Counted from the first letter of the stretch, positions 1,446-60,228 are shown. The stretch: 64,000 nt of DNA from Gammaproteobacteria bacterium (GCA_011051755.1 DRKN01000089.1:4917-68916), one strand, 5' to 3'. Made by a program: numbers and translations. Notes: a model not told the origin generated them from the sequence alone.

Positions 1446-1469
1446 ATCGCGGGCATGGCCCGCTCCTAC
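1446..1469. repeat. REP element, family A (ATCGCGGGCATGGCCCGCTCCTAC), single copy
   Basis: Imperfect palindrome GCGGGC-ATG-GCCCGC. The same 21-24 nt motif recurs at 7622, 7738, 14376, 14522, 42066, 42163, 53022 and 53143. Confidence 0.8.
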
Positions 1470-1520
1470 CTGTGCGCTGTGTTTCCGTGCTGCATCATTA
1501 ACCCACCGCTAAACGACGGC

Positions 1521-2951
1521 TCATGACATCTCTGCACCGTAACGGCCCGGTACCGACATGCCCATTTCACGCATCCGTGCCAATTTGTAACGCAGGGTGC
1601 GCTGACTGATGCCCAGTTTTTCGGCAGCAGTCTTGCGATTGCCATGATCGGCCTTGAGCACCGACAGGATACGGCTGTATTCGTGACCCTTCATTTCATC
1701 GACCAGCGATTTGGGGCCGTCGTCGTCGCCATCCGCCAACACCGGCAGTTCATCGATCCGTTCGTATTGAATGTCTTCGGCGGCAATACATTCACCGTTG
1801 TACAGAATCAGCGCGCGCTGGATGACGTTGTCCAGTTCGCGTACATTACCGGGCCAATGATGATTCTGTAATTGTGTCTTCGCCGCCTCACTCAGCAACG
1901 GAACTTTGACCGAACTGTTGGCCGGGTCGTTGAGCAAAAGAGAGGCGGAAAGCGTGCCACTGACGGCGCGGAAATGCTTCTGCAACAGGCGCTCGGCCAG
2001 TGGCACAATATCGTCGGTGCGCTCACGCAATGCAGGAATGCGAATCGGAAAGACGTTGAGACGATAGAACAGGTCTTCACGAAAATGACCGGCCTGTACC
2101 TCTTTGCGCATATCGCGGTTGGAAGTGGCCAGCACACGCACATCCAGTTCGATGAGCTTGTTGCCGCCCAGACGCTCCACCTGCCGTTCCTGCAATACAC
2201 GCAGCAGTTTGGCCTGTAAGGCCGCATCCATTTCGGAGATTTCGTCCAGCAACAGGGTGCCACCCTGGGCCAGTTCGAACTTGCCGGGGCAGGCCTTGTA
2301 GGCGCCGGTGAAGGCGCCCTTCTCGTAACCGAACAGGGTGGCCTCGAGCATGTTGTCGGGGATCGCCGCGCAATTGATGGCGATAAAGGGCTGCCCGGCA
2401 CGCGCCGAATGGCGATGGATATGCTGCGCCAGCACCTCTTTACCGACGCCGCTCTCGCCGGTGAGCATCACCGTGGCGTCACTGACGGCGACGCGCTTTG
2501 ACAATTCCACCAATTGGCGGCTGCGCACATCCACCGCCACCATATCGTCACCGGCCAGGCCACCGGTGGCCAGTGCCGTGCCGATACGCGGATCGACGTG
2601 CAGCGCCACATTGGCCGCCAGCACCTCGGCCTCAAAGGGCTTGGTCAAATAGTCCACCGCGCCGTCACGCATGGCCTCGACGGCCATTTCAATGGAGCCG
2701 TAAGCCGTCATCAGCATCACCGGCAACGGTGGCCATTTCCGTTTGATCTGTTTCAACAGGGTATGGCCGTCCATGCGCGGCATCTGAATATCGGTAATCA
2801 CCATCTGCACCGTCTTGCGGTCGAGGATGTCCAGCGCCGCATAGCCATTATCGGCGGTTTCCGTGGCATAGCCCGCCAGGCTCAGGGTGTCGCAGAGGGC
2901 GCTGCGCAGCTCTGCATCATCTTCCACGACCAGAATTACTACTTGTTTCAT
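1521..2951 (-). CDS. fleR: Sigma-54-dependent response regulator (FleR/FlrC-like): REC + AAA+ sigma-54 interaction + HTH
   Basis: Start moved to the MKQVVILVVEDD ATG at 2949-2951, which has a GGAGG RBS. It contains GESGVGKE (Walker A), the GAFTGA sigma-54 contact motif and a C-terminal HTH. It follows fleS and precedes fliE. Confidence 0.85.
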   Translation of the reverse strand: MKQVVILVVEDDAELRSALCDTLSLAGYATETADNGYAALDILDRKTVQMVITDIQMPRMDGHTLLKQIKRKWPPLPVMLMTAYGSIEMAVEAMRDGAVDYLTKPFEAEVLAANVALHVDPRIGTALATGGLAGDDMVAVDVRSRQLVELSKRVAVSDATVMLTGESGVGKEVLAQHIHRHSARAGQPFIAINCAAIPDNMLEATLFGYEKGAFTGAYKACPGKFELAQGGTLLLDEISEMDAALQAKLLRVLQERQVERLGGNKLIELDVRVLATSNRDMRKEVQAGHFREDLFYRLNVFPIRIPALRERTDDIVPLAERLLQKHFRAVSGTLSASLLLNDPANSSVKVPLLSEAAKTQLQNHHWPGNVRELDNVIQRALILYNGECIAAEDIQYERIDELPVLADGDDDGPKSLVDEMKGHEYSRILSVLKADHGNRKTAAEKLGISQRTLRYKLARMREMGMSVPGRYGAEMS

Positions 2952-2988
2952 ATAACCTCCTGAACCGAAATCTGTCGCCGCGAATGGA

Positions 2989-4104
2989 TCATTTGTCGTC
3001 ATCCAGGCGTGGCAGTTGCAGGATAAATTCGCTGCCCTCACCCAGCCGGCTATGGACACGCACACCACCGCCGTTGGCCTGAGCCACGGCCTGCACCACG
3101 GACAGACCCAGGCCGGTGCCGTTGGCGCGGGTGGTGAAAAAGGGTTTGAAGAGATGTTTTTGCACCTCGGCTGTCATACCCGGGCCGCTATCGGTAATGG
3201 TGATTTCCAGCATGTCGCAGGCGCCCTGGCGCAGTCCCAGTCGCAGCACACCGCCCTGCCCCATGGCCTGCATGGCATTGTTGGTGATATTCAACAGGGC
3301 GCTGAGCAGGGTGCGGGGATTACCCTGCACGCGGGCACCTTCGCAGGCAGTGCGAAGCTGTAATTCAGTGCCGCGCTCCTCGCAGTGCGGCGCCACCGCG
3401 CTCGCCAGACTGGCGAGCAGAGCGTCCAATTCGATAAGCTCTTCCCCACCATAACCACTGCGTGAAAACAGCAACATGTCGTTAGTCAGCGCATCCAACT
3501 GACGCAATTGGGAGACAACCTTGCCGGCCAGTTCGGCGCGGGACGTCACATCGAGATGGGATTGCTTGAGCTGTGAGGCGTACAACAGACCCGCGGCCAA
3601 CGGCGTGCGTACCTGATGGGCGAGGCCGGCGGCCATCTCACCCAGCGCCGAGAGCCGTTGGTGCTGGCTCAGGCACTGCTGTAATTCACGGGTTTCGGTG
3701 ACATCGTTGAGCAACAGCAACTGGCCCGGCTCATCGCCCAAGGGGCAGGTGGAGATACTGACACGGCGGCCATCGGCCAGGGAGATTTCATGACCATCGT
3801 CGCTGCGGGGAGAAAAGGCGCGGCCAATGATGTCGGTCCAGCGCTCGCCCGTCAGCGGTTCGCCGAGCAGTTTGATCGCCGCAGGGTTGCATTCCTGCAC
3901 ACGCCCCGAGGCATCCAGCACCACGACGCCGGACGGCAGGGCACTGAAAATGGCTTGCAGGCGCCGAGCCTTGTCCGGCACGGGCGGTAACGCTTGATCG
4001 ACGGAATGCAGCGGGTAAGAAGGTTCCCGCCGTGGAGGAGCCAGATCGAAAACCTGAAAAGAGTGCTCCAGGGTTTGGATCTGTGGGGTTTGCTGTACGG
4101 CCAT
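2989..4104 (-). CDS. fleS: PAS-domain sensor histidine kinase (FleS/FlrB-like)
   Basis: The likely start is MAVQQTP at 4102-4104. It has the H-box LAHQVRTPL and a HATPase_c region (NAMQA...GTGLGLS). No TM segments are evident, so it is a cytoplasmic PAS kinase like FleS. Confidence 0.8.
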   Translation of the reverse strand: MAVQQTPQIQTLEHSFQVFDLAPPRREPSYPLHSVDQALPPVPDKARRLQAIFSALPSGVVVLDASGRVQECNPAAIKLLGEPLTGERWTDIIGRAFSPRSDDGHEISLADGRRVSISTCPLGDEPGQLLLLNDVTETRELQQCLSQHQRLSALGEMAAGLAHQVRTPLAAGLLYASQLKQSHLDVTSRAELAGKVVSQLRQLDALTNDMLLFSRSGYGGEELIELDALLASLASAVAPHCEERGTELQLRTACEGARVQGNPRTLLSALLNITNNAMQAMGQGGVLRLGLRQGACDMLEITITDSGPGMTAEVQKHLFKPFFTTRANGTGLGLSVVQAVAQANGGGVRVHSRLGEGSEFILQLPRLDDDK

Positions 4105-4176
4105 CGTCACGCCTCGCTCTGACTGTTGTTGTCCGCCGCGGGTTTTCCCGCAGGCGGTACCTTGACAGCCGTGATG

Positions 4177-4193
4177 GAGCAAAATACGTGCCT
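4177..4193 (-). promoter_or_regulatory. Sigma-54 (-24/-12) promoter upstream of fleS-fleR
   Basis: The minus strand reads aGGCACgtattTTGCt. GG and GC are separated by exactly 10 nt, a near-consensus match to TGGCAC-N5-TTGCW. It lies about 75 nt upstream of the fleS start. Confidence 0.6.
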
Positions 4194-4248
4194 AAATAAT
4201 TTTTTCCTTTTTATTCAGTTGCTTGGGGTATCCAAGAAAAAACAGGAG

Positions 4249-5673
4249 TCAAATTCCCGTCACGGACTCACTGCGTTGCAGGCCATACTTGCGCAATTTC
4301 TCGACGAGGGTGGTGCGGCGCATCTTCAGCCGCTTGGCGGCATGGGCCACCACACCGCCCGCCTCGTCCAGCGCCTGCTTGATCAGCGAGCACTCGACGG
4401 TGGAAATATGCTCTTTGAGGTCCAGCCCCTCACGCGGCAAGCGGGCAGGCTGTAAGGGCATCACGGGTGTCAACTGCGGATCCAGCGTGATCTGCGGCAG
4501 ATTTTCGCCACTGCCAGCGGGACGGAACTTAGCCGGTAAATCACCCACATCGACAATGCCATATGGATGCATGATGACCAGCCGTTCGAGCAGGTTGGAC
4601 AGCTCGCGCACATTACCCGGCCAGCGGTACTGGCACAGGGCAATCAGTGCGGCCGGTGTAAAGCGTACTGAGCCACGTTTTTCATTTTCCATGCGCGCGA
4701 TCAGTTCATTCACCAGCAGGGGCACATCGTCGATGCGCTCACGCAGGGGCGGCATGTCGATGGGAAAGACGTTCAGGCGGTAATACAGGTCTTCGCGGAA
4801 TTTACCCGCGCTGATCAGTTCATCAAGATTGCGATGCGTGGCGGCGACGATACGCACATCGGCGCTCAGCACTTTGTTACCGCCGATGCGTTCGAAAGTA
4901 CGTTCTTGTAGCACCCGCAACAGCTTGACCTGCATGGTCGTAGGCATATCGCCGATTTCATCGAGGAACAGGGTGCCACCCTCGGCCATTTCAAAGCGGC
5001 CGCGACGGGCGCTGATGGCGCCGGTAAAGGCGCCCTTCTCGTGACCAAAGAGTTCGCTTTCCAGCAGCTCGCCGGGAATGGCGCCACAGTTGATGGGGAC
5101 GAACGGTTTGTCACGACGGGAGGAATGGTAGTGCAGGTTGCGCGCCACCACTTCCTTACCGGTACCGGACTCACCCAGAATCAGCACCGTGGCGTCCGTG
5201 TCCGCCACCTGTTCGATGAGCTTGTGCACCTCAAGGATGCCACGGCTATTACCTACCAGACTGCGGAAAAGCTCCAGGTTCATACCACCACCGCGCTTTT
5301 GACTCAGTCGATAAACCTGGGCGCGGTGCAGAGCGTCGGAGACCTCGGCGTAACGCATGGGAAGATTGATCAGACTAAACGCGTTCTTGACCATGTCCTG
5401 GTCAAGATCATGCTCGCCATTTTCCGCAACCAGCACCAAAACAGGTATATTTCCAGGCGCCTGACGCAGTGTGTCAAAGGTTGTCTTACGCGCCTCTGCG
5501 GAGCTACACCCCCCCAGGATAATGGCCTCAACCCCATCGTCCAGCCTATCGCCGGCCGCCTGGTAGTCGATGATGGTGATCGGCTCCTGGGCAACGAATT
5601 CGAGTATCGCGGCAAGCTTGTCCCGCTGCTGCTTATCGTCTTCCACCAGCAAGATAGTCATGGAATCGGGCAT
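4249..5673 (-). CDS. fleQ: Sigma-54-dependent master flagellar activator (FleQ/FlrA-like)
   Basis: The best start is MPDSMTILLVEDD at 5671-5673, with a GGAG RBS. It has GESGTGKE, GAFTGA and a C-terminal HTH. It sits upstream of fleSR, as FleQ does in Pseudomonas. Confidence 0.8.
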   Translation of the reverse strand: MPDSMTILLVEDDKQQRDKLAAILEFVAQEPITIIDYQAAGDRLDDGVEAIILGGCSSAEARKTTFDTLRQAPGNIPVLVLVAENGEHDLDQDMVKNAFSLINLPMRYAEVSDALHRAQVYRLSQKRGGGMNLELFRSLVGNSRGILEVHKLIEQVADTDATVLILGESGTGKEVVARNLHYHSSRRDKPFVPINCGAIPGELLESELFGHEKGAFTGAISARRGRFEMAEGGTLFLDEIGDMPTTMQVKLLRVLQERTFERIGGNKVLSADVRIVAATHRNLDELISAGKFREDLYYRLNVFPIDMPPLRERIDDVPLLVNELIARMENEKRGSVRFTPAALIALCQYRWPGNVRELSNLLERLVIMHPYGIVDVGDLPAKFRPAGSGENLPQITLDPQLTPVMPLQPARLPREGLDLKEHISTVECSLIKQALDEAGGVVAHAAKRLKMRRTTLVEKLRKYGLQRSESVTGI

Positions 5674-6860
5674 TTTTTTCTCCGTGCACCAGTCGAGTAC
5701 TCTGTCCATATTCACCTTGACGAAGTACTTGGACTCCGTCAGTTTTCCCAGCCCGCTAAGTAAAACACCTGATTTCCGGTATGTCAAAATATTGTCACGA
5801 GAAATAAAGGGAAAATGCCTTTAAAAACGGAGAGCTATCGATTTTTCCTGAATACGGACACAAAGAAACAGGCTCAACTCACTATCCTTTCACCGTGGTT
5901 TGACGTCTTTCGGAGGAGCCGCTCCGGTGGGCGCGTAGTTTGTGCCCACGCGCTACAAACCGCGTTGTAGGAAATTTCTGAAGTCGATGCGATATTTTGG
6001 GCATGTGCTCGCTCCTTAATACCGAAAAACATACTGAATTTTAACCGGCACTTCGTAAGAAACAAGCTTCCAGGAGTCCTTTTCCGTGCGCAAATGCGCG
6101 CCCTGTCGTCCACAGGGCGCCCCGTTTGACCGCCCTTTGAGGTTTGATATAAACATGGCGTTTGATAGGTGTGCCCTTTGCTCGTCCACTTTACCGACCC
6201 TGTCATCTGCGGTGAGCCACCGCTATCAAAATCCGTGATCGCTTCTTGGGTCGCCAACTGGCCAATTTCATTACCGGCCTGTTGAATGGCTTCTTCGGCT
6301 TCAAACAGGGAGCCACTGATTATTGACCGTCACTTCCAGTGTCCGTTGTTTTTTGTCCGTGTGAGCAATTGTGCCATGATGAGTTTGCCTATTGTATACA
6401 AATCATGGTGTTGTAGAGTAAGCTTGGAAATCACATCATGCCAAGTTCTCACCCGGTAAGACCTTATGCTGTGTCGTTACAGCAGCTTTTCTGGAAAGAG
6501 AACAGGAATACCTCAAGATTAACCCCAACGTCAGGGCGAGACTGGAAAAATTGCCCGAACTACAACAGCCTTTTAACTTTTTCAGAACAATTGATCAGCT
6601 GGGTTTAGGCTCAAAATGATGAAGATACGAAGCCAAGACTGCCAGCACAAGAAACGATTCAGGAAGGCGACCTACGACTATCTTGGTGGTCTGGATCTTT
6701 AACCGACCGGTGTTAAACGGGAGGGATCGCCCGTTCGATAATGGGAAAGACCCAGAAAAAATAATGTATTTAAAACAGCATCACTACCGAATCAAGCGAT
6801 TTTTTTCTCCTATAAAGCCAATATTCTTGTTATTCATGGCGGCCGCTGCTGCAACAGAAA

Positions 6861-7601: not shown

Positions 7602-7621
7602 AGCCGGCGCCATGTTTCACC

Positions 7622-7761
7622 GGAGCGGGCCATGCCCGCGATGGTCTGCCTATGGTGTTGTAGGCGCGGCAGCCCGGTGATGAAAAACTATCGCACCTAA
7701 AGGCGCTCCTGATGTGTTGGTGATGTCTCAGGAAACCATCGCGGGCATGGCCCGCTCCTAC
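7622..7761. repeat. REPIN: inverted doublet of family-A REPs (GGAGCGGGCCATGCCCGCGAT ... ATCGCGGGCATGGCCCGCTCCTAC)
   Basis: Two copies in opposite orientation, about 95 bp apart, forming a long hairpin-capable unit. Confidence 0.8.
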
Positions 7762-7793: not shown

Positions 7794-8525
7794 ATGGCAA
7801 TCCTCTGGCAAAAACAGGTCGGCGACACCCGTTACGAAGTGCGCACCGCCGGGCGTTCGCGACGCCTGTATTCCAATGGCGTATTCCACAGTCAGTACCA
7901 CCCGGGTCGCCCCCACGCCGGCGGCGTCTGGGATCTGCTCATGTTGCCAGCTTTTTTCCGCTCGCCCACGCGTATCAGACGCATCCTGGTGCTGGGTGTT
8001 GGTGGTGGCACGGTGATTCATCTGTTGCAACGTTTTCTGCGGCCGGAAGCAATCATCGGCGTGGAATTGAACCCTGTTCACCTACAGGTGGCGCGGCAGT
8101 TCTTCGATATCAGGAAAGACATGGCCACCCTGCACCAGGCCGATGCCGTGCAGTGGCTGAACGACTACGACGGCCCCGCCTTCGACATGATTATCGATGA
8201 CCTGTTCGGCAACGAAGACACCGGTCGCGCGGTGCCCGCCGACACGGCGTGGTGCAGCATCTTGCTGCGCAATCTCAACCGCAATGGCGTGCTGGTGATG
8301 AATTTCATCGGCGGCAAGGCCTTGCGCCACAGCGCCTGCGTCAGCGAACCGCTGATCGCCCGTCACTTCACGTCCCGCTTTCAGCTTAGTCTGCCGGCCT
8401 ACGAAAACGCCATCGGCGCCTTCCTCGGCCACCCGGCCAGCAGCCAGGGCCTGCGCAAGAATCTTGCCCGCGTGCCCGAACTCTCCAGCAAGCGCATCGA
8501 CTTTCGCATCCGGCAGATCACTTGA
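7794..8525 (+). CDS. Spermidine-synthase-like SAM-dependent methyltransferase / aminopropyltransferase family protein
   Basis: It has the VLGVGGGT glycine-rich SAM/dcSAM-binding motif and a DDLF acidic motif. 243 aa. Confidence 0.55.
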   Translation: MAILWQKQVGDTRYEVRTAGRSRRLYSNGVFHSQYHPGRPHAGGVWDLLMLPAFFRSPTRIRRILVLGVGGGTVIHLLQRFLRPEAIIGVELNPVHLQVARQFFDIRKDMATLHQADAVQWLNDYDGPAFDMIIDDLFGNEDTGRAVPADTAWCSILLRNLNRNGVLVMNFIGGKALRHSACVSEPLIARHFTSRFQLSLPAYENAIGAFLGHPASSQGLRKNLARVPELSSKRIDFRIRQIT

Positions 8526-8743
8526 TAAGCGCCGGAGGAAGGTGCTGTAGAAATTCCATTTCTTTCATCATTGAACGATTTCAGTACCATCGAGCACACA
8601 GCGCGCGCCACGAACAGGTGTAGTGTGCGCCGTGCGCACAAGATGGATATCCCATTCCTCTGTAAACGCTGCATCTCTGCGATGAGCTGAATAATGACTC
8701 TTTTCTTTGCGCTCCCCGCCCCCCTGCGCCCACTTCATTTGAC

Positions 8744-12550: not shown

Positions 12551-12555
12551 CCCCG

Positions 12556-12624
12556 TAGGGTGGACACCGCCCACCAATACCGGTTTCTATCATTCGCAGA
12601 AATGGTGGGCAATGCCCACCCTAC
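12556..12624. repeat. REPIN, family B (GTAGGGTGGGCAnnGCCCACC inverted doublet)
   Basis: cgtagggtggacaccgcccacc ... ggtgggcaatgcccaccctac in inverted orientation. The family recurs at 17430, 28637, 39486/39536, 45666 and 59131/59176. Confidence 0.8.
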
Positions 12625-14375: not shown

Positions 14376-14545
14376 GGAGCGGGCCATGCCCGCGATAGTT
14401 TTGCCCTTACGCCACAGAGATTATTGTTTTGGAGATTGTGGGAACGACTTCAGCTGCGAATAAAACCAGCCTTCTTCGCAACTGAAGTCGCTCCCGTAGA
14501 TTGATGATTTTCCCACCGATGATCACGGGCATGGCCCGCTCCTAC
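14376..14545. repeat. REPIN, family A doublet, with an internal 16-bp inverted repeat (cgacttcagctgcgaa / ttcgcaactgaagtcg at 14441-14495)
   Basis: ggagcgggccatgcccgcgat ... atcacgggcatggcccgctcctac. A degenerate half-copy lies at 14348-14361. Confidence 0.8.
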
Positions 14546-15825: not shown

Positions 15826-17413
<1,588 letters not shown>

Positions 17414-17429
17414 TTAAAGTCGGTTGATC

Positions 17430-17498
17430 GTAGGGTGGGCACTGCCCACCGGGAATTTTATAACTTATTGTAGGTTGGGGTGGGGAACGAACCCCAAC

Positions 17499-17502
<4 letters not shown>
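17430..17502. repeat. REP family B single copy (17430-17450) plus a family-D palindrome GTAGGTTGGGGTGGGGAACGAACCCCAACCTAC (17470-17502)
   Basis: The family-D palindrome overlaps the kdsA stop codon. A related GTTGGGGTTCG motif occurs at about 29560-29590. Confidence 0.7.
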
Positions 17503-19969
<2,467 letters not shown>

Positions 19970-20419
19970 TCAGGTGGAACAGTGGATTCAGGAAGGGGCA
20001 AAAGGGTAGCAGAATGGCGTGAATTGCTCAATGGCGGCCAACCGGAAGCCTGTACCCGGACGCTACAGAGCCACACCCTGCCCGGTGGCGGAATGCAGCA
20101 ACAAAACCATATTTTACAAAGGGATAAAGACACCCGGGCTGGGCTGGTTAAGCGCCCAATAGTGCTTGAATACAGCTTCAAGAATCCCGTCAGTCAGGCT
20201 CACTTCATCACCTTGTGTGGCACATCGGTTCCGGCTTCCATCATTTCCCCGGTTTTCAGGACATTGCCCGGGCCACCCGGCAGCCCGGGCCGGAATGCAT
20301 CAATGATTTCTATCACGTCAGCGCGGCACACTGGAACCCTGCCGTACAACATACCGATGATCGTCACTGGCTCAGTGAGCCGTCAGAAAAAGCAACCCCG
20401 CCCCCTTTTCTGTCATCAC

Positions 20420-20848
20420 CTACTTGATTTCCAATAATTGCATCTTGTGTGCAAAATATTCAAACACCTTTCGCTCTCTACCAATATTGCATGCGCCACT
20501 TGTTTTTGTTACTGAACTTGGATAAACAATGCCATTGTTTGCAACAGCGACAGCCGTATATTTCGCAATACACCGCTCCTTATTTTCTGCTAGTGTCTCG
20601 ATTAGCAAAACATAAAAATTCCCAATCCGCTCTGCATGAGGAATATTGGTTTGAGAATGATGAATAAACCGGCAATTCTTCGATGATTCTTTCTCAAAGA
20701 AATGAATTTTTTCCATTTTACCTTTTGGCTGTGTCACTGATAGCGTACAATTTGCATTTAGCTCCAGCTTGGAGTCAAAGATTAATAGTGGGCCGGCATA
20801 TGAACAACCTGTGACCGTAAAAAAAATTACAAAAGAAAAACTTTTCAT
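20420..20848 (-). CDS. tai4: Putative Tai4-like immunity lipoprotein (cognate to the upstream Tae4)
   Basis: The start MKSFSFVIFFTVTGCSY gives a signal peptide and a lipobox Cys. About 142 aa. The 4-nt ATGA overlap with the tae4 stop is the usual effector/immunity coupling. The local GC is far below that of the flanking genes. Confidence 0.5.
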   Translation of the reverse strand: MKSFSFVIFFTVTGCSYAGPLLIFDSKLELNANCTLSVTQPKGKMEKIHFFEKESSKNCRFIHHSQTNIPHAERIGNFYVLLIETLAENKERCIAKYTAVAVANNGIVYPSSVTKTSGACNIGRERKVFEYFAHKMQLLEIK

Positions 20849-21279
20849 GGCAGTGTCCACATCCAAATCGTTTTTGCATCCCAATATGAGTCCCCGACAG
20901 CAACGTTGTTTTCCCATAAATCGATATGACCCTGACCGTTAAAACCAGGGACATTCATATAACAAACAACTCCTTTTTTTCCAATCGCGTTTGCGGGAGC
21001 CGATCCACTTGGCTGGGCATTCCAACCGAGAGTTCGCATTCCCCATACGCTCGGTAGAGCTAAAATAGAAGCTAAATCCTGGGCGCCACGAATATAACCA
21101 TGAGGACACTTGTTCTTCGGGGATCTTTTGAAGGCATCTAAAAGCTTTGGGTCAGCCCTGACAAGTGCTTCACTCATTCGTATTGCGCACGTATTGGGAA
21201 AATGCATTGAGCATGTGTGTATCTGTGTAGACTGTGTTTTATAATTTGTTTTCACTTTTGTAAACGCAGGCTTCATCAT
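20845..21279 (-). CDS. tae4: Tae4-family type VI secretion amidase effector (peptidoglycan DL-endopeptidase)
   Basis: 144 aa. NTCAIRMSEAL matches the Tae4 catalytic-Cys block (N-A-C-P-I-R-M-S in Salmonella/Enterobacter Tae4). The C-terminal GQGHIDLWEN...WMWTLP matches the Tae4 His block and C-terminus. A GAGGAG RBS is present. Confidence 0.7.
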   Translation of the reverse strand: MMKPAFTKVKTNYKTQSTQIHTCSMHFPNTCAIRMSEALVRADPKLLDAFKRSPKNKCPHGYIRGAQDLASILALPSVWGMRTLGWNAQPSGSAPANAIGKKGVVCYMNVPGFNGQGHIDLWENNVAVGDSYWDAKTIWMWTLP

Positions 21280-21592
21280 CCACTGATTCTCCTCGGTATG
21301 TTAATTTTTGGCCAACTTATTAGTATTGATAGTTGCGTAAATATTCGCAGTCGTTCCTCCTTGTTACCTGGGGAAAACACTTGTTTTCATGCGAGAACAT
21401 ACACAACTGTTAATATTAAGCATAAGAGCCCTATTTCCCTGCAATATTAGACCAAAAATCAGGCAATAACATTCGACAATCACCTAAAAACAAGCCAATT
21501 CGCCTTGATGTCTTTATAACGCCATAAAATTCAGGCATGTTTTCGTTATTCAAACACCTAAACAAGTAGCGGGACGCTATAAACAACTTTCG

Positions 21593-22717
21593 TCACGCCT
21601 CGCGCCGCAGCATGGCCAGGCATTCCACATGCCAGGTCTGTGGAAAGAAGTCGTAGGGTTGCAGCCGCTCCACCCGATAACCTGCCATGCATAGGCGTTG
21701 CAGATCACGCGACAGGGTGCCGGCACTACAGGACAGATAGGCCATACGCTGCGGACGGTAGTCTTCGCAGATCCAGTCGAGCACCGCCGGTTCCAGCCCG
21801 CTGCGCGGTGGATTCACGTACAGCAGACGTTCGCCGGGCGCCGCCACCCATTCACGCACCTGCGGCAGACGCTGTGCGCAAGGGCCGCGCAACACCGGCA
21901 CCCCCGGGGCGTTGTGCGCTGCACAGGCCACCGCCTCGGCGCCAATCTCCACCCCCAGCACGCGTGCGCCAGCCTGCTGCCAACACCGCAGGGTGCGGCC
22001 GCTGCCACAATAGAGATCAACGATCCGGGTATGCGCATCCGGTGCCAGGAACGCCTGCGCGGCATCGAGAGATTGGGCATAGAGTGCCGGGATCAGCTGC
22101 TGAAAGGCGCTGGGCCCATAGCGCATGCCCGCCTCGTCCGTGGAATACGGCACGCCCCACAACAAGTGCCAGCCGTTCTTGTGAAACAGGCGTTTGCCGG
22201 CAGAGGGGAACAGCTGTAACCAGAGCCCCTCGACGCCGGCCCGGTGCAGGGCCTGTACGGTGTCGGCATTGAACCAGGCATTGTCGGGTGGCCTCGCCGT
22301 CTTTAGCACCAGGGTGACCTGTGCCCCCGCCTGCACATAGAAGGCAAGGGGAAAATGCGCCGCGGCGGGCAATACTTGCAGCAGCGCGGCGAGGGTTTTT
22401 CGCACCCGCACGCTGTGCACCGGGCAAGCGCGGATATCGATAACCTCGTCGCGCCGCATCAGGCCGATGCGCCATTCATCACACGCATCCCCGCCGGCCA
22501 CCCACTGCGCCGTCAACGTCACCCGGTCACGATAGGCCCAGCGCCGTGTGCCGCTCACCACACGGATCGGCGCCAGACATTCGCGCCACGGCGCCAACGC
22601 GCCGGTCAGCCAGCCGAGCTTCTGTGTCTCACTGGCCCGTGCCGACAGGGCGCGATGGGCACAGCCGTTGCAGTCCACCCGGCAACCCGCAACCCGTGTT
22701 ACCGCAGGGCTCGGCAT
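21593..22717 (-). CDS. rlmC: 23S rRNA (uracil-5-)-methyltransferase RlmC/RumB-like
   Basis: 374 aa. It has an N-terminal Cys cluster (C..C..C plus a fourth Cys) for the Fe-S centre, then DLYCGSGRT, VNPPRSG, the nucleophile SCS and a C-terminal YxxxRxxxxDxFPxTxHxE block collinear with E. coli RlmC. Confidence 0.7.
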   Translation of the reverse strand: MPSPAVTRVAGCRVDCNGCAHRALSARASETQKLGWLTGALAPWRECLAPIRVVSGTRRWAYRDRVTLTAQWVAGGDACDEWRIGLMRRDEVIDIRACPVHSVRVRKTLAALLQVLPAAAHFPLAFYVQAGAQVTLVLKTARPPDNAWFNADTVQALHRAGVEGLWLQLFPSAGKRLFHKNGWHLLWGVPYSTDEAGMRYGPSAFQQLIPALYAQSLDAAQAFLAPDAHTRIVDLYCGSGRTLRCWQQAGARVLGVEIGAEAVACAAHNAPGVPVLRGPCAQRLPQVREWVAAPGERLLYVNPPRSGLEPAVLDWICEDYRPQRMAYLSCSAGTLSRDLQRLCMAGYRVERLQPYDFFPQTWHVECLAMLRREA

Positions 22718-28536: not shown

Positions 28537-28666
28537 TTGTGCGCACAGCGCACACTACACTTGCCCGTAGCATGCACTGTGCGCACGACATCCCTGAAAT
28601 AGAACCACTCAGCAACAAAAAACATGAAATACAAGCCTGTAGGGTGGGCACGTCTTTGGTGCCCAC
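28537..28666. repeat. REP cluster: family-C doublet (TGTGCGCACAGCGCACACTAC ... CGTAGCATGCACTGTGCGCACGAC, 28537-28590) plus a family-B copy (28637-28666)
   Basis: Family C (GTAGCGTGCGCCGTGCGCAC) also occurs at 8620-8639, 37339-37363 and 60181-60228. Confidence 0.75.
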
Positions 28667-29441: not shown

Positions 29442-29699
29442 ACCCTCAAAAAAACCAGCCGCAAAATTTTGATGCCTTGCCACAGGCGGGCGCACAGTGG
29501 CCAAACACGGCATATATTGTTGCCGGGTTAATATTGTCGATTGGTGGTGACGCAGGAATCCCAACATTGTTGGTTTCGTTGGGGTTCGCAAGCTCACCAC
29601 CAACCTGCAAAACAGTCATTATCTTGTTAACTTAATGGCATTGATGGGCTTTCCATCCCATTGCCCTATTTCCAGCTTAGTGCTCATCACCGTCTCGGG

Positions 29700-37307: not shown

Positions 37308-37406
37308 CAGGCAACTGAAACCGTTCAGAAACAAAACCCCGTAGCGTGCGCCGTGCGCACGACACCTTCTGGATTCAGATATTCGGGAAAAAGCAACCAC
37401 GGGCAG

Positions 37407-39485: not shown

Positions 39486-39556
39486 CGTAGGGTGGGCACT
39501 GCCCACCAAAATGACTTGCCTTATGCGGACAGAATGGTGGGCAATGCCCACCCTAC
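39486..39556. repeat. REPIN, family B doublet
   Basis: cgtagggtgggcactgcccacc ... ggtgggcaatgcccaccctac. Confidence 0.8.
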
Positions 39557-41761: not shown

Positions 41762-42010
41762 ATGAGATGGGCTCCTCTCCCCTTTTATAAACGGCGAACG
41801 GCGTCGCAATGCGCCATGCTGGAGTCCTGCCTGATCGGCATGAAATCCTGTGCAAGCGCCCATTACTGGGCCCGGCGGCTTAAGGCACTGGGTCATGAGG
41901 TCAAACTGATTCCGGCGCAATATGTGAAAGTCTGCGTGCGAGGCAACAAAAATGACGACAACGATGCGCCGGCCATCAGTGAAGCGTTCACTCATACCAC
42001 AGAGGCGGTT
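41762..42010 (+). pseudogene. Remnant of an IS110-family (DEDD) transposase, N-terminal region only
   Basis: ...CLIGMKSCASAHYWARRLKALGHEVKLIPAQYVKVCVRGNKNDDNDAPAISEA matches the conserved IS110 N-terminal block (CLIGMEACGxAHYWAR...GHxV.L....VK...K.NKND.NDAEAI.EA). The reading frame dies about 115 codons in, inside a REP. There is no C-terminal catalytic domain. Confidence 0.55.
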
Positions 42011-42065
42011 TGTCTTAAGCACAAAGAATCTTCCCACGACCGAAGCAGAAAAACCTATTGGACAA

Positions 42066-42186
42066 GGAGCGGGCCATGCCCGCGAAAAGCAACAAAAAAC
42101 AACCTGTGAGGGCGGCTTCCACAATGTCCGGATATTCTATCTCTGCGGTGAAGGACAGGACTATCGCGGGCATGGCCCGCTCCTAC
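42066..42186. repeat. REPIN, family A doublet
   Basis: ggagcgggccatgcccgcga ... atcgcgggcatggcccgctcctac. It directly abuts the IS110 remnant. Confidence 0.8.
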
Positions 42187-45507: not shown

Positions 45508-45739
45508 CCTCGCTCTAGTCTCGTTTTACGTTGAACTTGTGACACCGCTCTGCGGTGTCACACAGCCCGTGGCGCTCAGCGCCACCTTGGTGGATTAGCC
45601 TGGCTTTCTTACGCCACACCGCAGAGCGGTGTAGCGAGTCACATACAAGATGATACTAAGCCAACCGCGTGGGCACAAAAAACGTGCCCACCCTACATGG
45701 CTGGGTATTTTAGCCGCGCACCCGGCATGATCCCGCGCA

Positions 45740-49986: not shown

Positions 49987-50823
49987 ATGAAAAAACTGCT
50001 TTTGATTACTGCGGTTATTGGCGCCCTGGGCGCAGTCCCGCTGATCAGCCAAGCAAGCCCGGAGGATGACCTCAAGGCATTTCAGGGATATTTTACGGAA
50101 CGTTTTCCCAATGTACCGCTGGAAGAATTTGCCAATGGTGTCTATGCCATCGACAAGGCTTCGCGTGAGCAGTGGGAAGCGATCGAGGAATTCCCTCCCT
50201 ACGAAATCGCCATTGAGGAAGGTGAGGAAATGTTCAACACCCCCTTCAAGAATGGCAAGACCTACGCCAGCTGTTTCCGCAATGGCGGCATCGGCATCAA
50301 GAGTGACTACCCCTACTACGATATCGAAAAAGGTCGCGTGGAAACCCTGGCATCGGCGATCAATGAATGTCGTACCAAGAATGGCGAAGCCCCCCTCAAA
50401 TACATGAAAGGAGAACTCGCCTCACTGGTCGCCTACATGGCCTATACCACCCGGGGTCAGATCGTCGACATCAAGATTCCGTTTGACCAGCGCGCCCGTG
50501 ACGCCTACGAAGATGGCAAGCGTTTTTTTTACGCCCGTCGCGGTCAGCTGAACATGTCCTGCGCCCATTGCCACGTCGACAATGCCGGCAACAAGATCCG
50601 TGCCGACCTACTGTCTCCGGCGCTAGGCCATCTCACACATTTTCCGGTCTACCGCTCGAAATGGGGCAGCCTGGGCACCGCCCACCGCCGCTTTTCAGGC
50701 TGCAACAAACAGGTTCGCGCATTACCTTTCAAGGCACAAAGTCCTGAATACCGCAATCTTGAGTACTTCATGACCTACATGAGTAACGGGCTTCCCTGGA
50801 ATGGCCCCGGCGCCCGCAAGTAA
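49987..50823 (+). CDS. soxA: Cytochrome c SoxA
   Basis: The start MKKLLLITAVIGALGAVPLISQA gives a signal peptide, with the haem site CAHCH. It has a single haem, as in Allochromatium-type SoxA. Confidence 0.8.
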   Translation: MKKLLLITAVIGALGAVPLISQASPEDDLKAFQGYFTERFPNVPLEEFANGVYAIDKASREQWEAIEEFPPYEIAIEEGEEMFNTPFKNGKTYASCFRNGGIGIKSDYPYYDIEKGRVETLASAINECRTKNGEAPLKYMKGELASLVAYMAYTTRGQIVDIKIPFDQRARDAYEDGKRFFYARRGQLNMSCAHCHVDNAGNKIRADLLSPALGHLTHFPVYRSKWGSLGTAHRRFSGCNKQVRALPFKAQSPEYRNLEYFMTYMSNGLPWNGPGARK

Positions 50824-50851
50824 GGTGTTTGCAGCGTAGTTTGCAATGAAA

Positions 50852-50886
50852 AAGGCCCGGCGAGATTTCTTCCCGGGCCTTTTTTC
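50852..50886 (+). terminator. Rho-independent terminator after soxA
   Basis: aaaaaGGCCCGGcgagatttcttCCCGGGCCtttttt. Confidence 0.7.
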
Positions 50887-51192
50887 ATTGACAACGCTTC
50901 CGAAGTGGACACGGCCCATTGCAAGATATCGAGAATCCCCAGGGTCACCAACGAATACATACCCCTTAAGAGGAGTGTGAGTGCTCGTATTCACATGTAA
51001 GACTTTCTGTTCGCATGGCCGCGAAGTATCGCAGTCACCCGGCCTATCACCACGCCGTAAACATGAGTGCACATACCGGCAGGCGGCTGAACACAACATA
51101 TTAGGTGGCCGGGTTAATAACCAGCCACAGGCATCCATTGACGACACAATGAAGGCCTACCAAAACCATCCGTAGTAGGAGGAACGCATCAT

Positions 51193-52914: not shown

Positions 52915-53021
52915 TCCCGGTCTGTCGCAGTGGTGTGCTGATTTCATTGTGCGGATCACTGTCACTGCGAGCAGGTAAGTAGAGCTGGCACTGACATGCT
53001 GGGCTGTGTGTGTAGGAGCGG

Positions 53022-53166
53022 GCCATGCCCGCGATTATCGGCCATAAAAATTGGAGCGGCTTCAGCCGCGACAGCCGTGCTCGACAATAGTCACGGCTGA
53101 AGCCGCTCCTTGTATGCCACGAATCCTTATTGCGCAGCGATGATCGCGGGCATGGCCCGCTCCTAC
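53022..53166. repeat. REPIN, family A doublet, with an internal 17-bp inverted repeat (GGAGCGGCTTCAGCCG / CGGCTGAAGCCGCTCC, 53063-53109)
   Basis: gtaggagcgggccatgcccgcgat ... atcgcgggcatggcccgctcctac. Confidence 0.8.
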
Positions 53167-53612
53167 ACTCAATAGACTTTTCTGCCTCAGTTGTGGAAAA
53201 TTCTTCGTGAGTAGTGGCATTGATGGGCCGTAGGGCATGACAACGAGCCGACCGCCTTGCGCTGTCGCTTCGGTTTTTGTTTTTTCACCGCAGTAGGGCA
53301 CAAAGTACACGAAGCCATTGATCACTGCCCAAAACCATACATAAACCAAGGCAGTATCGTTTTGTAGGATCGGCACCGCCCACCATAATGCAGCCCCTGT
53401 GGTGAGCACAGACTAATTCTACTCCGTTACATTTACCTTGCTGAGTCAACATTCCCGCCCCAAGGGGCGAGGTATTGGGAGGAATTCACCCACTACGCAT
53501 TGTTCAATGCTTGTTCGCAGCAGCAAAAGTAGGCGCTTTTCTTAAAGAACCTACTTTTGGTAGGCGAGCTGTGGGGAATTGACCCCTCAGAGATTAAAGT
53601 AACAGCGTAGAA

Positions 53613-54674: not shown

Positions 54675-54678
54675 CATA

Positions 54679-55940: not shown

Positions 55941-57473
55941 ATGGAATTCAGCATCAAGAGTGGCTCCCCCGAAAAACAACGCTCCGCCTGCGTGGTGGTC
56001 GGTGTCTTCGAACCGCGCCGCCTCAGCCCCGCCGCCGAGGCCCTGGACAAAGCCAGCGACAGCTTCCTCTCCACCGTACTGCGCCGTGGCGACATGGAAG
56101 GCAAGATCGGCAAGACCCTGCTGATTCACAACCCCCAGGGCGCCATGGCCGACCGCGTGCTGTTGGTTGGCTGTGGCCGCGAACGCGACATCAGCGACCA
56201 GCAATACCGTGAAATCATCGGCAGCGCCGTAACCCGACTCGACGAGACCGGCACCATGGAGGCCACCTGCTACCTCACCGAGGTCAACGTCAAGGGCCGC
56301 GACTTGCACTGGAAGGTTCGCCACACCGTGGAAAGCAGCCGTGAAATTCTCTATCACGCCGATACCCTAAAAACCAAAAAGAACGACATCCGCCGCCCAC
56401 TGCGCAAGCTGATCCTCACCGTGCCACGCCGCAGCGACCTGAGCAATGGAGAACTGGCGATGCGCGAAGGCGAAGCCATCGCCGAGGGCGTGTCACTGGC
56501 CAAGGATCTGGGCAACCTGCCCGGCAACATCTGCACCCCGACCTATCTGGCCACGCAGGCCGTCAACCAAGGCAAGAAATACAACAAACTCAACGTGGAG
56601 ATCCTGCAGCAGGCACAGCTGGAAAAACTCAGCATGGGCTCCTTCCTCTCGGTGGCCAAGGGCTCGCGCGAGACGCCACATCTTATCATCGCTGAATACA
56701 AGGGCGGCACCAGCAAACAGAAACCGGTGGTACTAGTGGGCAAGGGCATCACCTTTGATGCCGGCGGCATCTCCATCAAACCCTCGGCGGCCATGGACGA
56801 AATGAAATACGACATGTGCGGCGCCGCCACCGTATTAGGCGCCCTCACCGCCTGCTGCGAACTCGAACTGCCCATCAACCTGGTAGTGGTCATTCCCACC
56901 TGTGAAAACCTGCCCGATGGCGCCGCCAACAAACCCGGTGACATCGTTACCAGCATGTCCGGACAGACCATCGAAGTGCTCAATACCGATGCCGAAGGCC
57001 GTCTCATCCTCTGCGACGCCCTGACCTACGTCGAACGCTTCTCACCCGATGCCGTGATCGACGTCGCCACCCTCACCGGCGCCTGTGTGATCGCCCTCGG
57101 CCGCCATGCCAGCGGCGTAATGGGCAATCATCATCCACTGGTGCACGACCTGCTGAACGCCGGCAAGAGCAGTGGTGACCGCGCCTGGGAGCTGCCGCTG
57201 TGGGATGAATACCAGGATCAGCTAAAGAGTAACTTTGCCGATATCCCCAACATCGGCGGCCGTGAAGGCGGCACCATCACCGCCGCCTGCTTCCTCTCGC
57301 GTTTCACCAAAAAGTACCACTGGGCGCACATGGACATCGCCGGCACCGCCTGGGTTTCCGGTGAAAAGAAAGGCGCCACCGGCCGTCCCGTACCGTTGCT
57401 CACCCAATACCTCATCGACCGCTGCGACAACAAGAGCAAGGCCAAAAGCAAGAGCGTAAAAGGCAAGAAATAA
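55941..57473 (+). CDS. pepA: Leucyl aminopeptidase (M17)
   Basis: 510 aa, with the NTDAEGRL signature and the [14 protein letters not shown] block. Confidence 0.9.
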
Positions 57474-57479
57474 TCCCCC

Positions 57480-57902
57480 ATGACCAAGGTCGATTTTTAT
57501 ATCCTCTCCACCGGCTCACGCGAACACATCGCCTGCAAGTTGGCGGAAAAGGCCTGGAGCCAGGGCCATCGCATCTACATCCACACCGCCAGCGCCGATC
57601 AGGCCCGACATATGGACGGGCTGCTGTGGATCTTCCGCGAGGGCAGCTTCCTGCCCCACGAGCCGTATCAGGCGGGCCGGGAGTACGACTCACCGATCCT
57701 CATCGGCAACGACGAGGCACCGGACACCGACAGCGACGTGCTCATCAACCTGGCCAACGACGTGCCACTGTTTTTCAGCCGTTTCCTGCGCGTGGCCGAG
57801 GTCATCGGCGCCGACAACGATGCCAGGCGCAGCGGCCGCGAGCGCTTCCGCTTCTACCGTGATCGCGGCTACCCACTCGACAGTCATGAATTGAAGGGGT
57901 AA
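57480..57902 (+). CDS. holC: DNA polymerase III chi subunit
   Basis: 140 aa, MTKVDFYIL... It lies immediately after pepA, as in E. coli pepA-holC. Confidence 0.8.
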   Translation: MTKVDFYILSTGSREHIACKLAEKAWSQGHRIYIHTASADQARHMDGLLWIFREGSFLPHEPYQAGREYDSPILIGNDEAPDTDSDVLINLANDVPLFFSRFLRVAEVIGADNDARRSGRERFRFYRDRGYPLDSHELKG

Positions 57903-58684
57903 TGCACGCTCAACCCGAGCCTCTTTGCATGCAGGCAAAGCTACCGCGTCCTGCTCTCGCCCCTCGCCTAAGAGCGCCTACTTTTGGTGCCTGCGTCCAT
58001 GCAGGCAATAAAGCCAGTGAGATTATGCATGACTTCATGCAATATCCAGTCTAACCATGAACGACAAACACCACAGATGCGGCCAGCCTTGTATGCGCTG
58101 GAAGCGACTAAAAGCCACACTATTTTCAATGACCAAGTCAATCAATGGGTTAAAAAAATCATCTTACGTCCAACAGGCTCCTAAACAAACATGGATTCAG
58201 CAATGTTTGACTTGAGCCATAATGAGCGATGGCTTACAGTTAGCACCATCGAACCAGGACTGTGAGGGTGCATCATGCTTGTTAAACTATTGATTTACAA
58301 TTTGTTTCAATACGGTGGCCCTGCGTAGAAATTCCCGAGTGAAAATACCTGGCGGATTCTTGACTTTTTTCCTCTTTGCATTCCTCGCCCCAAAACCTGC
58401 TTTGACGGGAAAAATCAAGGGGGAAATGGCCGAAGTAATGAACTTTTTGGTTTTTTGACAGACTATTTCCATTGCATGTTCAATGGTATTGATAATGAAT
58501 GTAGTATGTCGTCATAGGAAATATTGACGACATATTTTCTAAAAAGTTTTTATCCGGGCAGCAGCACCCGCTTAAGAACGAAACAAAACAACCAAGGCCA
58601 ATCGACGATTGCCGACGGTTATACCAGCCCCGCCGCCACATCGCGGGAAACACCACCCATTTGAGACCAACGAAGAGAATACCT

Positions 58685-59047
58685 ATGAAACCTATCATGC
58701 TCGCCATCACCCTGTGCCTGTCCGCCCTGATCACCACCGGCGCCATGGCCGCCGCCACCAAGACCGTTGAAGCCGTCAATAAAGAGTTCACCAGCCTGAA
58801 AGGTCAGCAAGTCACCGTCAGCGGCAAAGTTGTAAAAGTGAACAACGGTATCATGCGCCGCAACTTCATCCACATTCAGGATGGCACCGGCGGCCAAAAC
58901 AGCAACAACCTGATCGTCACCAGCAAGCAGACCGCCAAGGTTGGCGACCAGGTCACCATCACCGGCACCGTAGCGCTGGATACCGACTTCGGTATGGGCT
59001 ACATGTATCCCCTGCTGGTCGAACAGGCCACGATTCAGCCCCGCTGA
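58685..59047 (+). CDS. Small secreted protein, possibly a BOF/YgiW-like OB-fold protein
   Basis: Signal peptide MKPIMLAITLCLSALITTGAMA. The mature region is about 100 aa with the (V/I)TVSGKVVKV beta-strand pattern reminiscent of YgiW. The family call is weak. Confidence 0.45.
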   Translation: MKPIMLAITLCLSALITTGAMAAATKTVEAVNKEFTSLKGQQVTVSGKVVKVNNGIMRRNFIHIQDGTGGQNSNNLIVTSKQTAKVGDQVTITGTVALDTDFGMGYMYPLLVEQATIQPR

Positions 59048-59130
59048 GCAAACACCTGAAACACAAAAGGCCGGCTGGGCTTCCCCGGCTGGCCTTTTAA
59101 ATGCCTCTAAACGACTTTCAGCTTCCTGAC

Positions 59131-59196
59131 GTAGAGTGGGCACCGCCCACCAGTTACGTTCTATCCAAGCAGCGATAGTGGGCAGCGCCGCCCTAC
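59131..59196. repeat. REPIN, family B doublet
   Basis: gtagagtgggcaccgcccacc ... tagtgggcagcgccgccctac. Confidence 0.75.
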
Positions 59197-59287
59197 ATAT
59201 TTAATTTTGTGACCACATACGCCCTGTTTAAAGACATATTTCCTATGTGGTGCCATTGACTATGCATGGGCTGTTAGGCTTCAAACC

Positions 59288-59941
59288 TCACCCCGCCGCC
59301 CTACCGGGCTGACAGTATTTGCGCTTGTAGCCCACCAAGCCAAGAAGGCCGATACCCATCATCAGGATGGAGGAAGGCTCGGCGACGGGAACCGTGCTAT
59401 TTAATTCAATTCGCAGGGTATCCCAATAGATATCTGCACCCATAACGCCATTCATCCCGCCGCTGTATTGTTGATCCAGCCCAGCGAGCAATACGTTAAC
59501 CTCAAAATTTGTGGTAGGCCCCGTATTGCCGAAATCATAGCTAACGGATCCACCGGAATACGGATTGACGGACCACGTCAATGCCCCGGCAGTGCCACTA
59601 AAAGGCGGCAGTGCAGGAATCAAGTAAACACCCGAGGTAAAGCTGGTGTCCGGCAGATCAAAATCCGAGATCGTATCGCCATTGAAATCCATCCAGAACC
59701 CGTCCAGGCTGAAGCTTATCGTGTATTCCCCCGGCACAAAAAGGCTCAGGTTTTCATCAATATTCCCGGAAGTACCCGTAAAGCTGAATGTGGCAGGATT
59801 GTTTATCCCTAAACCTACAGCATAATTAACTTCACCAATACCTGTTACGTTTGTTGCCTCATAATAAATTGACGTCGCCATTGCAGACCCGCCAAAACAC
59901 AAAAATGCAGCACAAGCAGTGGTCGTTATGAGCTTTTTCAT
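59288..59941 (-). CDS. PEP-CTERM sorting-domain secreted protein
   Basis: Signal peptide MKKLITTTACAAFLCFGGSAMA. The C-terminal tag is VPVAEPSSILMMGIGLLGLVGYKRK, a PEP-like motif plus TM helix plus basic cluster, which is the exosortase recognition signal. Confidence 0.75.
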   Translation of the reverse strand: MKKLITTTACAAFLCFGGSAMATSIYYEATNVTGIGEVNYAVGLGINNPATFSFTGTSGNIDENLSLFVPGEYTISFSLDGFWMDFNGDTISDFDLPDTSFTSGVYLIPALPPFSGTAGALTWSVNPYSGGSVSYDFGNTGPTTNFEVNVLLAGLDQQYSGGMNGVMGADIYWDTLRIELNSTVPVAEPSSILMMGIGLLGLVGYKRKYCQPGRAAG

Positions 59942-60180
59942 TCGTCTACCTCTTTAGCAGCCTGTTAAATCGCCGTATTTATTACTTACCGGCACACGCA
60001 ATAACCTTAAGCAAACAGGGTGCCACCCACAACAACCACTTGAAATGAAAGGGAACCATACAGTGCAAACCAGTTGGAACCCCGATCACTGTAAAAAATA
60101 CCGACAGCCCCATAAAATCGCCGTTTCGATTCAGTTCGCTACAGAGTGATAGAATTTACAAAGGAAGTGTTTATCCCTAT

Positions 60181-60228
60181 TGCGCGCACAGCACACACCT
60201 GCCCGTAGCGTGTGCCATGCGCACGATG
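60181..60228. repeat. REP family C doublet
   Basis: tgcgcgcacagcacacac ... cgtagcgtgtgccatgcgcacgat. Confidence 0.7.

Follow-up and report, generated by a model that had tools for sequence, protein, structure and literature searches.

GTAG-tagged REP elements and nested REP doublets in intergenic DNA of an uncultured hydrothermal-vent gammaproteobacterium

REP elements in the intergenic DNA of the window

The DNA considered here, hereafter the window, is a stretch of 64,000 nucleotides assigned to a Gammaproteobacteria bacterium (GCA_011051755.1, DRKN01000089.1:4917-68916), whose intergenic gaps carry numerous short palindromes of the repetitive extragenic palindromic (REP) type, many of them paired as inverted doublets (REPINs). 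The window corresponds to part of a 97-kb contig from a hydrothermal-vent metagenome, ERZ940665 k127_773484 (99.99% identity; window position x corresponds to contig position x + 4898), and Logan contigs of a second, independent sample, SRR7787487, are 100% identical to it. The gene map, taken from public gene calls, has 55 genes, with 41 gaps of at least 30 bp between them that together make up 12.4 kb of the 64 kb. It includes flagellar genes (fliE-I, fleQSR), genes of central metabolism (eno, pyk, pyrG, kdsA, sucCD, nadE), soxXYZAB, dsrE/tusA, lptFG and two FadL-like porins, at a G+C content of ~57%. Judged by this predicted gene content, with Sox, DsrE and the like, the host is an uncultured hydrothermal-vent gammaproteobacterium of the Sox/DsrE sulfur-oxidising kind.

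We take the palindromes to be, very probably, GTAG-tagged REPs of six types (A, E, B, B2, C and D), mostly arranged as inverted doublets, of which the A/E class is cognate to one clade of REP-associated tyrosine transposases (RAYTs). The original prediction had distinguished at least four families and considered them repetitive, and within the window their over-representation is confirmed: the family A 21-mer, GGAGCGGGCCATGCCCGCGAT, has 9 matches at 0-1 mismatch (positions 1446, 7622/7738, 14376/14522, 42066/42163 and 53015/53143) versus 0.02 expected, family B has 11 matches versus 0.02, family C has 5 versus 0.00, and a scan for GTAG ahead of a GC-rich hairpin, made without regard to family, returned 19 sites versus 1.7 in second-order Markov simulations. 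An all-against-all comparison of the intergenic DNA recovered the same REP sites and little besides. The catalogue holds 32 arms in 16 gaps, and 32 of the 32 are extragenic; a match to family B with three mismatches at 50666-50686 lies within soxA and was left out. The elements had further been said to occupy nearly every intergenic gap, which proved too broad, as they are present in 16 of the 41 gaps of at least 30 bp and in 15 of the 31 gaps of at least 100 bp. By gene orientation, occupied gaps account for all seven convergent gaps, 8 of 27 tandem gaps and one of seven divergent gaps (convergent versus divergent, Fisher p = 0.005), and in the tandem gaps the elements mostly lie 14-52 nt beyond the upstream stop codon. 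This strong bias to gene 3' ends agrees with the textbook distribution of REPs, which lie mainly between tandem or convergent genes, 3' of coding regions (PMC3733652).

The prevalence of inverted doublets was likewise upheld, with 22 of the 32 arms paired in four A, two E, three B and two C doublets, and four head-to-head A doublets arose from nine arms in 0 of 20,000 random placements in the intergenic DNA. Across A, B, B2, C, D and E the stems measure 6-12 bp and the loops 3-9 nt, as expected of REP stem-loops. The GTAG tag is carried by six of nine A arms and by the non-degenerate B, B2, C and D arms, and its counterpart in E is GTGG. Further, 4 of 8 ends of the Logan contigs of the second sample fall on REPs, at 45673 (B2), 53171 (A unit), 42086 (A arm) and 29590 (D-like); such breaks are expected because multi-copy sequence interrupts assembly. 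A scan of the window at the Rfam gathering thresholds matched no family. Two other kinds of element were rejected on inspection, attC sites for want of GTTRRRY cores and CRISPR loci for want of a direct-repeat array, and in both cases the neighbouring genes are housekeeping genes.

Family A doublets and the family E pairs within them

The elements of family A, with the E pairs that they enclose, are the following (z, folding z-score):

1446-1469, minus strand: single, GTAG-tagged family A REP, 52 nt 3' of the stop codon of a FleR-like gene.
7622-7761, arms at 7622-7642 (plus) and 7738-7761 (minus): family A head-to-head doublet with an eroded inner E pair, its left arm without GTAG, 21 nt past the stop codon of a DsbA-like gene; z -7.4.
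14376-14545, A arms at 14376-14396 (plus) and 14522-14545 (minus): composite A[E-E']A' with an intact E doublet at 14440-14463 / 14472-14495; z -8.0.
42066-42186, arms at 42066-42086 (plus) and 42163-42186 (minus): family A head-to-head doublet with an eroded inner E pair, its left arm without GTAG; z -6.5.
53012-53166, A arms at 53012-53035 (plus) and 53143-53166 (minus): composite A[E-E']A' with an intact E doublet at 53053-53072 / 53090-53109, in the convergent gap of the SoxB and LptG genes; z -11.6.

The four doublets and the single copy had all been recognised in the original prediction, except that the fourth doublet starts at 53012 rather than 53022. An A arm has the form GTAG-GA-GCGGGC-CAT-GCCCGC-GAT, and each of the four units folds as a single long hairpin (z -6.5 to -11.6, n = 4), as REPINs do. 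Two of these doublets had been noted to carry a second inverted repeat in the spacer. These inner repeats exist, at 14440-14495 and 53053-53109, but they are not unrelated to A as had been supposed: they read TGTGGGAGCGGCTTCAGCCGCGAA, which we term family E, and display the same frame of tag, GA, GC-rich stem, loop, stem and GA(A/T), so that each pair is itself a REP-like doublet. Nor are they confined to two units, since an alignment of the four A doublets revealed eroded copies of the inner E pair in 7622-7761 and 42066-42186. With the pair present in all four, intact in two and eroded in two, all four are therefore A[E-E']A' composites. The arms follow the nested order A+ E+ E- A- (+ + - -), and the window shows no tandem amplification. 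Identity among the four units is 98% in the outer arms, 37-48% in the inner arms and 12-29% in the spacers.

The composite A[E-E']A' recurs in related metagenome-assembled genomes (MAGs), namely Dive96_bin2.149 (loci L005, L014 and L100), an Ectothiorhodospiraceae MAG (L006) and a Chromatiales MAG (L021), and a free E doublet is found at L100:7142. For the 14376 copy, the left spacer matches that of one L100 composite at 72% identity (L100a; z 7.5) and those of two L014 copies at 65-66%, with different flanking genes; the L005 and L006 spacers are 79% identical to each other, and spacers between non-orthologous loci overall show 65-79% identity (z 4.5-7.5). Homologous spacers in copies with different flanking genes speak for copying of the composite in its entirety, in at least two sub-lineages, and these comparisons of sequence suggest such copying in the present lineage. 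In the arm-to-arm pairing of the inner helix five pairs are changed on both sides versus 1.5 in shuffles, and in the local hairpins one pair is so changed, counts that come from a small sample whose cells are not independent events. It is possible, although we hold it to be rather doubtful, that what replicates is the nested unit of ~120-170 bp, as a second-order REPIN in a lineage of sulfur-oxidising Gammaproteobacteria from vents and sediments; a RAYT would then act on the outer A arms, and the inner E doublet would travel as a passenger. Such copying would account for outer arms that stay 98% identical around a decaying interior, and, if true, it would mean that REPINs can capture and co-propagate other REPINs. 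Copying of the nested composite as a unit, if true, would extend the REPIN model a little without opening a new question.

The tag-bearing arms of the 7622, 14376 and 42066 units and the single copy are on the minus strand (all five; small numbers). In other genomes 324 of 364 A arms keep GTAG (89%, or 11% loss). An asymmetric transposition unit, conceived from the loss of GTAG on one arm, was considered, but the pattern is not significant against the 11% loss elsewhere (binomial estimate, p ~0.07) and we make no claim for it. The public metagenome annotation places hypothetical genes of 41 aa and 52 aa on the REPINs, at 14407-14532 (minus) and 42015-42173 (minus) respectively; these are almost certainly spurious calls made by the repeats. 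REPs thus have a practical cost in such data, both in breaking short-read assemblies, as at the four contig ends of the second sample, and in creating small spurious open reading frames (ORFs).

RAYT genes, rival explanations and known systems

A link between REPs of the A/E class and RAYTs is found in other genomes. The exact family A 21-mer is present in at least 119 stretches of other genomes in an exact-match scan of GTDB, with hosts that include many Pseudomonas genomes, Methylococcaceae, Woeseiaceae, the Betaproteobacteria-type lineages Gallionella and Nitrosomonadales, Desulfobacterota and others; the nearest among the matches listed is the MAG Dive96_bin2.149, at 81-92% identity over short pieces. 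Elsewhere, too, the 21-mer nearly always stands in inverted doublets, with a spacing that is lineage-specific. RAYT-like ORFs occur in three of those loci, and in only two does a RAYT lie beside the REPs: in L051 a Y1_Tnp (PF01797) gene has A doublets on both sides, and in L092 a Y1_Tnp gene has family A REPs on its 3' side, both above the Pfam cut-off. In the third locus, L063, 3.4 kb separate the only A copy from the RAYT-like ORF, which scores under the Pfam cut-off. A metagenome scan with the L051 and L092 RAYT proteins yielded 80 loci at 49-64% identity. Family A REPs lie within ~150 bp of the gene in 54 of these and E-like REPs in 2, and most of the remaining loci have REPs in which the frame GTAGGAGC...GCGA is invariant and the four inner stem positions show compensatory changes. 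The frame of the A/E class can be written GT(A/G)G-GA-GC-[variable stem]-loop-[complement]-GC-GA. At E <=1e-20 the RAYT protein family counts more than 5,000 members; JGI and NCBI name it RayT or REP-associated tyrosine transposase.

RAYTs are flanked by their own cognate REPs (PMC2817692). The flanking of these genes by REPs of the A/E frame supports the view, for the other genomes in which it is seen, that A and E are the cognate REP class (GTAG-1 in PMC3733652) and putative substrate of one clade of Y1/HUH RAYTs. One REP frame, GTAGGAGC-stem-GCGA, here clearly tracks one RAYT clade across very distant bacteria. The reading of the doublets as RAYT-mobilised REPINs, offered in the original prediction, stands as far as anatomy and, for A and E, the company of RAYT genes elsewhere (L051, L092 and 56 of the 80 metagenomic loci) are concerned. 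Two side observations may be added. The spacing of A doublets is 0-25 nt in Pseudomonas, 30-37 in Methylococcaceae and 5 in a Desulfospira chromosome, and a Pseudomonas MAG has six family A REPs in tandem, in one orientation, with a period of ~104 bp (L083:5800-6381), an ordered cluster as described for strain SBW25. The family A REP is also far more conserved than its RAYT, for which identity is 49-64%.

By analogy with IS200/IS605 elements and with published work on RAYTs, a single-copy RAYT elsewhere in the genome would bind the REP hairpin on single-stranded DNA, read the GTAG tag, cut and rejoin, and the doublets would be copied into new extragenic sites. Copies would survive where they are harmless, i.e. 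3' of stop codons, and to judge from this position REPs there would probably be transcribed as hairpins of the 3' untranslated region (3' UTR) that can stabilise or end transcripts. It is from this analogy that we infer RAYT copying within the present genome through single-stranded intermediates and transcription of the elements into 3'-UTR hairpins.

One of the REP-bearing gaps holds a trace of an insertion sequence (IS):

41813-42001, plus strand: IS110-family transposase remnant, residues 43-105 of ~340 aa (63 residues), truncated at both ends, 64 bp before the left A arm of the REPIN at 42066-42186.

The remnant is 63% identical to an annotated Sphingobium IS110 transposase (tblastn E ~1e-18 to 1e-20), and its score against Pfam DEDD_Tnp_IS110 is 16.3 bits, under the 29-bit cut-off. 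Beyond residues 43-105 no IS110 alignment was found in any frame, with no further fragment past the REPIN; the DEDD N-terminal domain, C-terminal domain and element ends that together define an intact IS110 are not seen in it, and at the remnant no bridge/seek-RNA region is identifiable, there are no element ends and no REP is split. A preference of IS110 elements for REPs is documented (PMC1525189, PMC8450116, PMC11208160). The fragment resembles the REP-targeting ISPpu9, ISPpu10 and IS621 in being a DEDD-type sequence in a REP-bearing gap, but differs from them in that 63 of ~340 residues are left and no insertion into a REP is demonstrable. The remnant had been cited as abutting the REPIN in keeping with that preference; it is real, but since it is short, truncated and 64 bp away it says nothing about target choice here.

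Several observations weigh against the interpretation of the elements as RAYT-mobilised REPINs. As originally noted, there is no RAYT in the window, and 75.9 kb of the source contig likewise contain no RAYT- or Y1-transposase-like ORF, so that present mobility here stays an inference; the RAYT link, moreover, is limited to the A/E class, and B, B2, C and D are read as REPs from their predicted anatomy. Doublet spacing had been called conserved, which fails for family A, whose inter-arm distances are 76, 95, 107 and 125-127 nt (few copies). Neither this spacing nor the spacer sequence of the four window doublets (12-29%) is conserved, unlike in a recently amplified REPIN population, and in three of the four (7622, 14376 and 42066) the left arm lacks GTAG while the adjoining 21 nt are perfect. 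The proposed role in transcripts is argued from position: a terminator/promoter scan of the window gave 25 terminator-like sites versus 19.2 expected, which is uninformative, and the elements are without a T-tract. The disparity between outer arms that are 98% identical and spacers that are essentially unalignable looks like constraint on the arms and not like recent duplication. It thereby favours an account in which the elements are relic or domesticated structural sites without present mobility, selected by the host as 3'-UTR stabilisers, as Rho-dependent or pause terminators, or as protein sites of the IHF/gyrase type. The occupancy of all convergent gaps, the location of elements 14-52 nt past stop codons, the lack of a RAYT in the contig and the presence of different REP families in the kdsA-eno gap of the window and of a Methylococcaceae MAG are also in line with such static sites. 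We nevertheless consider them an unlikely explanation, because identical GTAG-tagged 21-mers and the tight association with RAYTs at dozens of loci point to a transposase-linked origin, spacers common to composites at non-orthologous loci point to copying, and neither T-tracts nor a signal in the terminator scan speak for terminators. The two accounts are in any case not exclusive of each other, as the standard view is that hosts put such elements to use once RAYTs have spread them.

The size of the A units, 120-170 bp with terminal inverted repeats, and the IS110 remnant 64 bp from one of them might also evoke miniature inverted-repeat transposable elements (MITEs) derived from a conventional (DDE/DEDD) IS, e.g. 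leftovers of an IS110-like element moved by its transposase. We regard this as very improbable. None of the four A units is bounded by a target-site duplication (flanks CACC/GCAA, AGCC/ACTT, ACAA/ACAC and TGTGT/ACTC), and their terminal repeats are not IS110 ends but GTAG hairpins identical to those beside Y1 RAYT genes; an IS trace is present in only 1 of the 16 occupied gaps, and the IS110 fragment has no sequence in common with the REPs. Still less credible is the reading that the matches arose by chance as palindromes, or are ordinary intrinsic terminators, in GC-rich intergenic DNA, which is already refuted for A, B, C and E. Against it stand 5-11 observed matches versus 0-0.02 expected and the recurrence of the same sequences in at least 119 stretches of other genomes, and a genuine T-tailed terminator hairpin at 50839-50895 looks quite different. 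This reading keeps some force for the degenerate members only: those at 50666 (inside soxA), 53364, 59176, 60181 and 29577 are unconvincing singly, and family D rests on one good copy.

The elements are ordinary REPs and REPINs, and the nested composite, which recurs and is apparently co-propagated, departs only modestly from known systems. GTAG REP families with head-to-head and tail-to-tail dimers and a 3'-end bias (PMC3733652) and the REPIN concept (PMC3116915) are established, and structured spacers, hybrid bacterial interspersed mosaic elements (BIMEs) and insertions of REPINs into REPINs are likewise already described (PMC3733652, PMC2817692, PMC3116915). With the GTAG-1 REPs of Pseudomonas and the REPINs of P. 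fluorescens SBW25 (PMC3733652, PMC3116915) the window elements share: 1) the same module, in which GTAG and two unpaired nucleotides precede a GC stem of 5-6 bp with a short loop, followed by a conserved tail of 3 nt; 2) head-to-head, extragenic doublets that fold as one hairpin; and 3) a REP that flanks a Y1 RAYT gene. They differ from SBW25 in the long and variable spacing of family A (76-127 nt, against modal values of 71 and 110 bp), in the host, in the E doublet carried by the A spacer, apparently inherited with it as a composite unit, and in that the RAYT link is seen in other genomes. In SBW25 a doublet within a spacer is known from five sporadic cases, whereas the nested plan, with homologous spacers, is common to the four A doublets of the window, without exception, and to at least five MAG loci. 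The BIMEs of E. coli and Stenotrophomonas, including hybrid BIMEs with REPs of two RAYTs (PMC2817692), are similar in being RAYT-linked assemblies of several REP types 3' of genes, but they show regular spacing, alternating orientation and often tandem repetition, unlike the nested + + - - composite of the window, which is a single unit. The range of hosts known for REPIN-type elements thereby gains an uncultured hydrothermal-vent sulfur-oxidiser.

Families B, B2, C and D, and minor features of the window

The remaining REPs of the window are listed below.

12555-12624: family B head-to-head doublet, 28 nt between arms, in the convergent gap of the lipase and pyruvate kinase genes; z -4.8.
39487-39556: family B head-to-head doublet, 28 nt between arms, ending 23 nt 3' of the sucD stop codon; z -6.7.
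59131-59196: family B doublet with a degenerate right arm (59176-59196) and no single-hairpin fold; z -2.1.
17430-17450, plus strand: single family B REP in the kdsA-eno gap.
53364-53384, plus strand: single degenerate family B REP with two mismatches.
28639-28666, plus strand: single B2 REP, GTAGGGTGGGCAC-N7-GTGCCCAC, with an 8-bp stem and a 7-nt loop.
45669-45696, minus strand: single B2 REP in a convergent gap; a Logan contig of the second sample ends within it.
5926-5956, minus strand: degenerate B2-like REP in the 1.2-kb divergent gap 5' of fleQ.
28538-28586, no strand assigned: family C tail-to-tail doublet (CTAC-N8-GTAG); z -3.7.
60181-60224, no strand assigned: family C tail-to-tail doublet with a degenerate left arm that lacks CTAC; z -1.0.
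8620-8640, plus strand: single family C REP in a convergent gap.
37341-37361, plus strand: single family C REP in the convergent gap of the BamD and P-II genes.
17470-17502, no strand assigned: family D perfect palindrome, its stem 11-12 bp long, with GTAG on both strands, overlapping the kdsA stop codon; z -4.7.
~29577-29615, minus strand: degenerate relative of family D with a GCAG tag; a Logan contig ends within it.

What had been described as a single family B is enriched but mixes two types, B with a 7-bp stem and a 3-nt loop and B2 with an 8-bp stem and a 7-nt loop, and one of its doublets (59131-59196) has a degenerate arm and does not fold as one hairpin. The B doublets are head-to-head with GTAG outward and arms 28, 28 and 24 nt apart (three copies). 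The C doublets are tail-to-tail and ~8 and 6 nt apart (two copies), and the same arrangement occurs in a Pseudomonas locus. In family D the perfect palindrome was retained, but the second copy is degenerate and lies at ~29577-29615 on the minus strand instead of 29560-29590. A plasmid search with the B doublet gave one 25-nt match, L213:3632-3656 on the cyanobacterial plasmid pEu1 of Euhalothece natronophila, which matches a family B arm and its tail at 100% identity, and no RAYT is annotated within 4 kb of it; a plasmid search with the C doublet gave no match. Among the other-genome loci examined there is no RAYT near B or C copies.

The kdsA-eno gap holds the B and D REPs in the window (17393-17498) and a family A doublet in a Methylococcaceae MAG with the same gene order (L074:3344-3416), so that distant relatives have different families in one and the same gap. 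Directly 3' of a FadL gene and beside a B2 REP, 45516-45658 is a 143-nt imperfect inverted repeat without GTAG, predicted to form one long hairpin with three local hairpins (RNA z -7.0); 50 nt of it are 88% identical to L100:5911-5960 of Dive96_bin2.149, so it is probably another repeat family.

Two stretches of the window, 58000-62000 and 20000-22000, have a low G+C content (0.41-0.49 versus ~0.57) and small hypothetical genes, and within them the long gene-free gaps at 57903-58684, 60883-61580 and 19955-21592 are free of REPs; these stretches may be acquired DNA. ARAGORN called a 93-nt tRNA-Ile(GAT) at 8053-8145 (minus), but as this lies within a spermine-synthase-like methyltransferase gene (7794-8525) the call is probably a false positive. 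Finally, an 84-nt direct repeat with 76% identity, 2010-2093 versus 4726-4809, reflects the paralogy of two sigma-54 activators (FleR-like and FleQ) and is not a mobile repeat.

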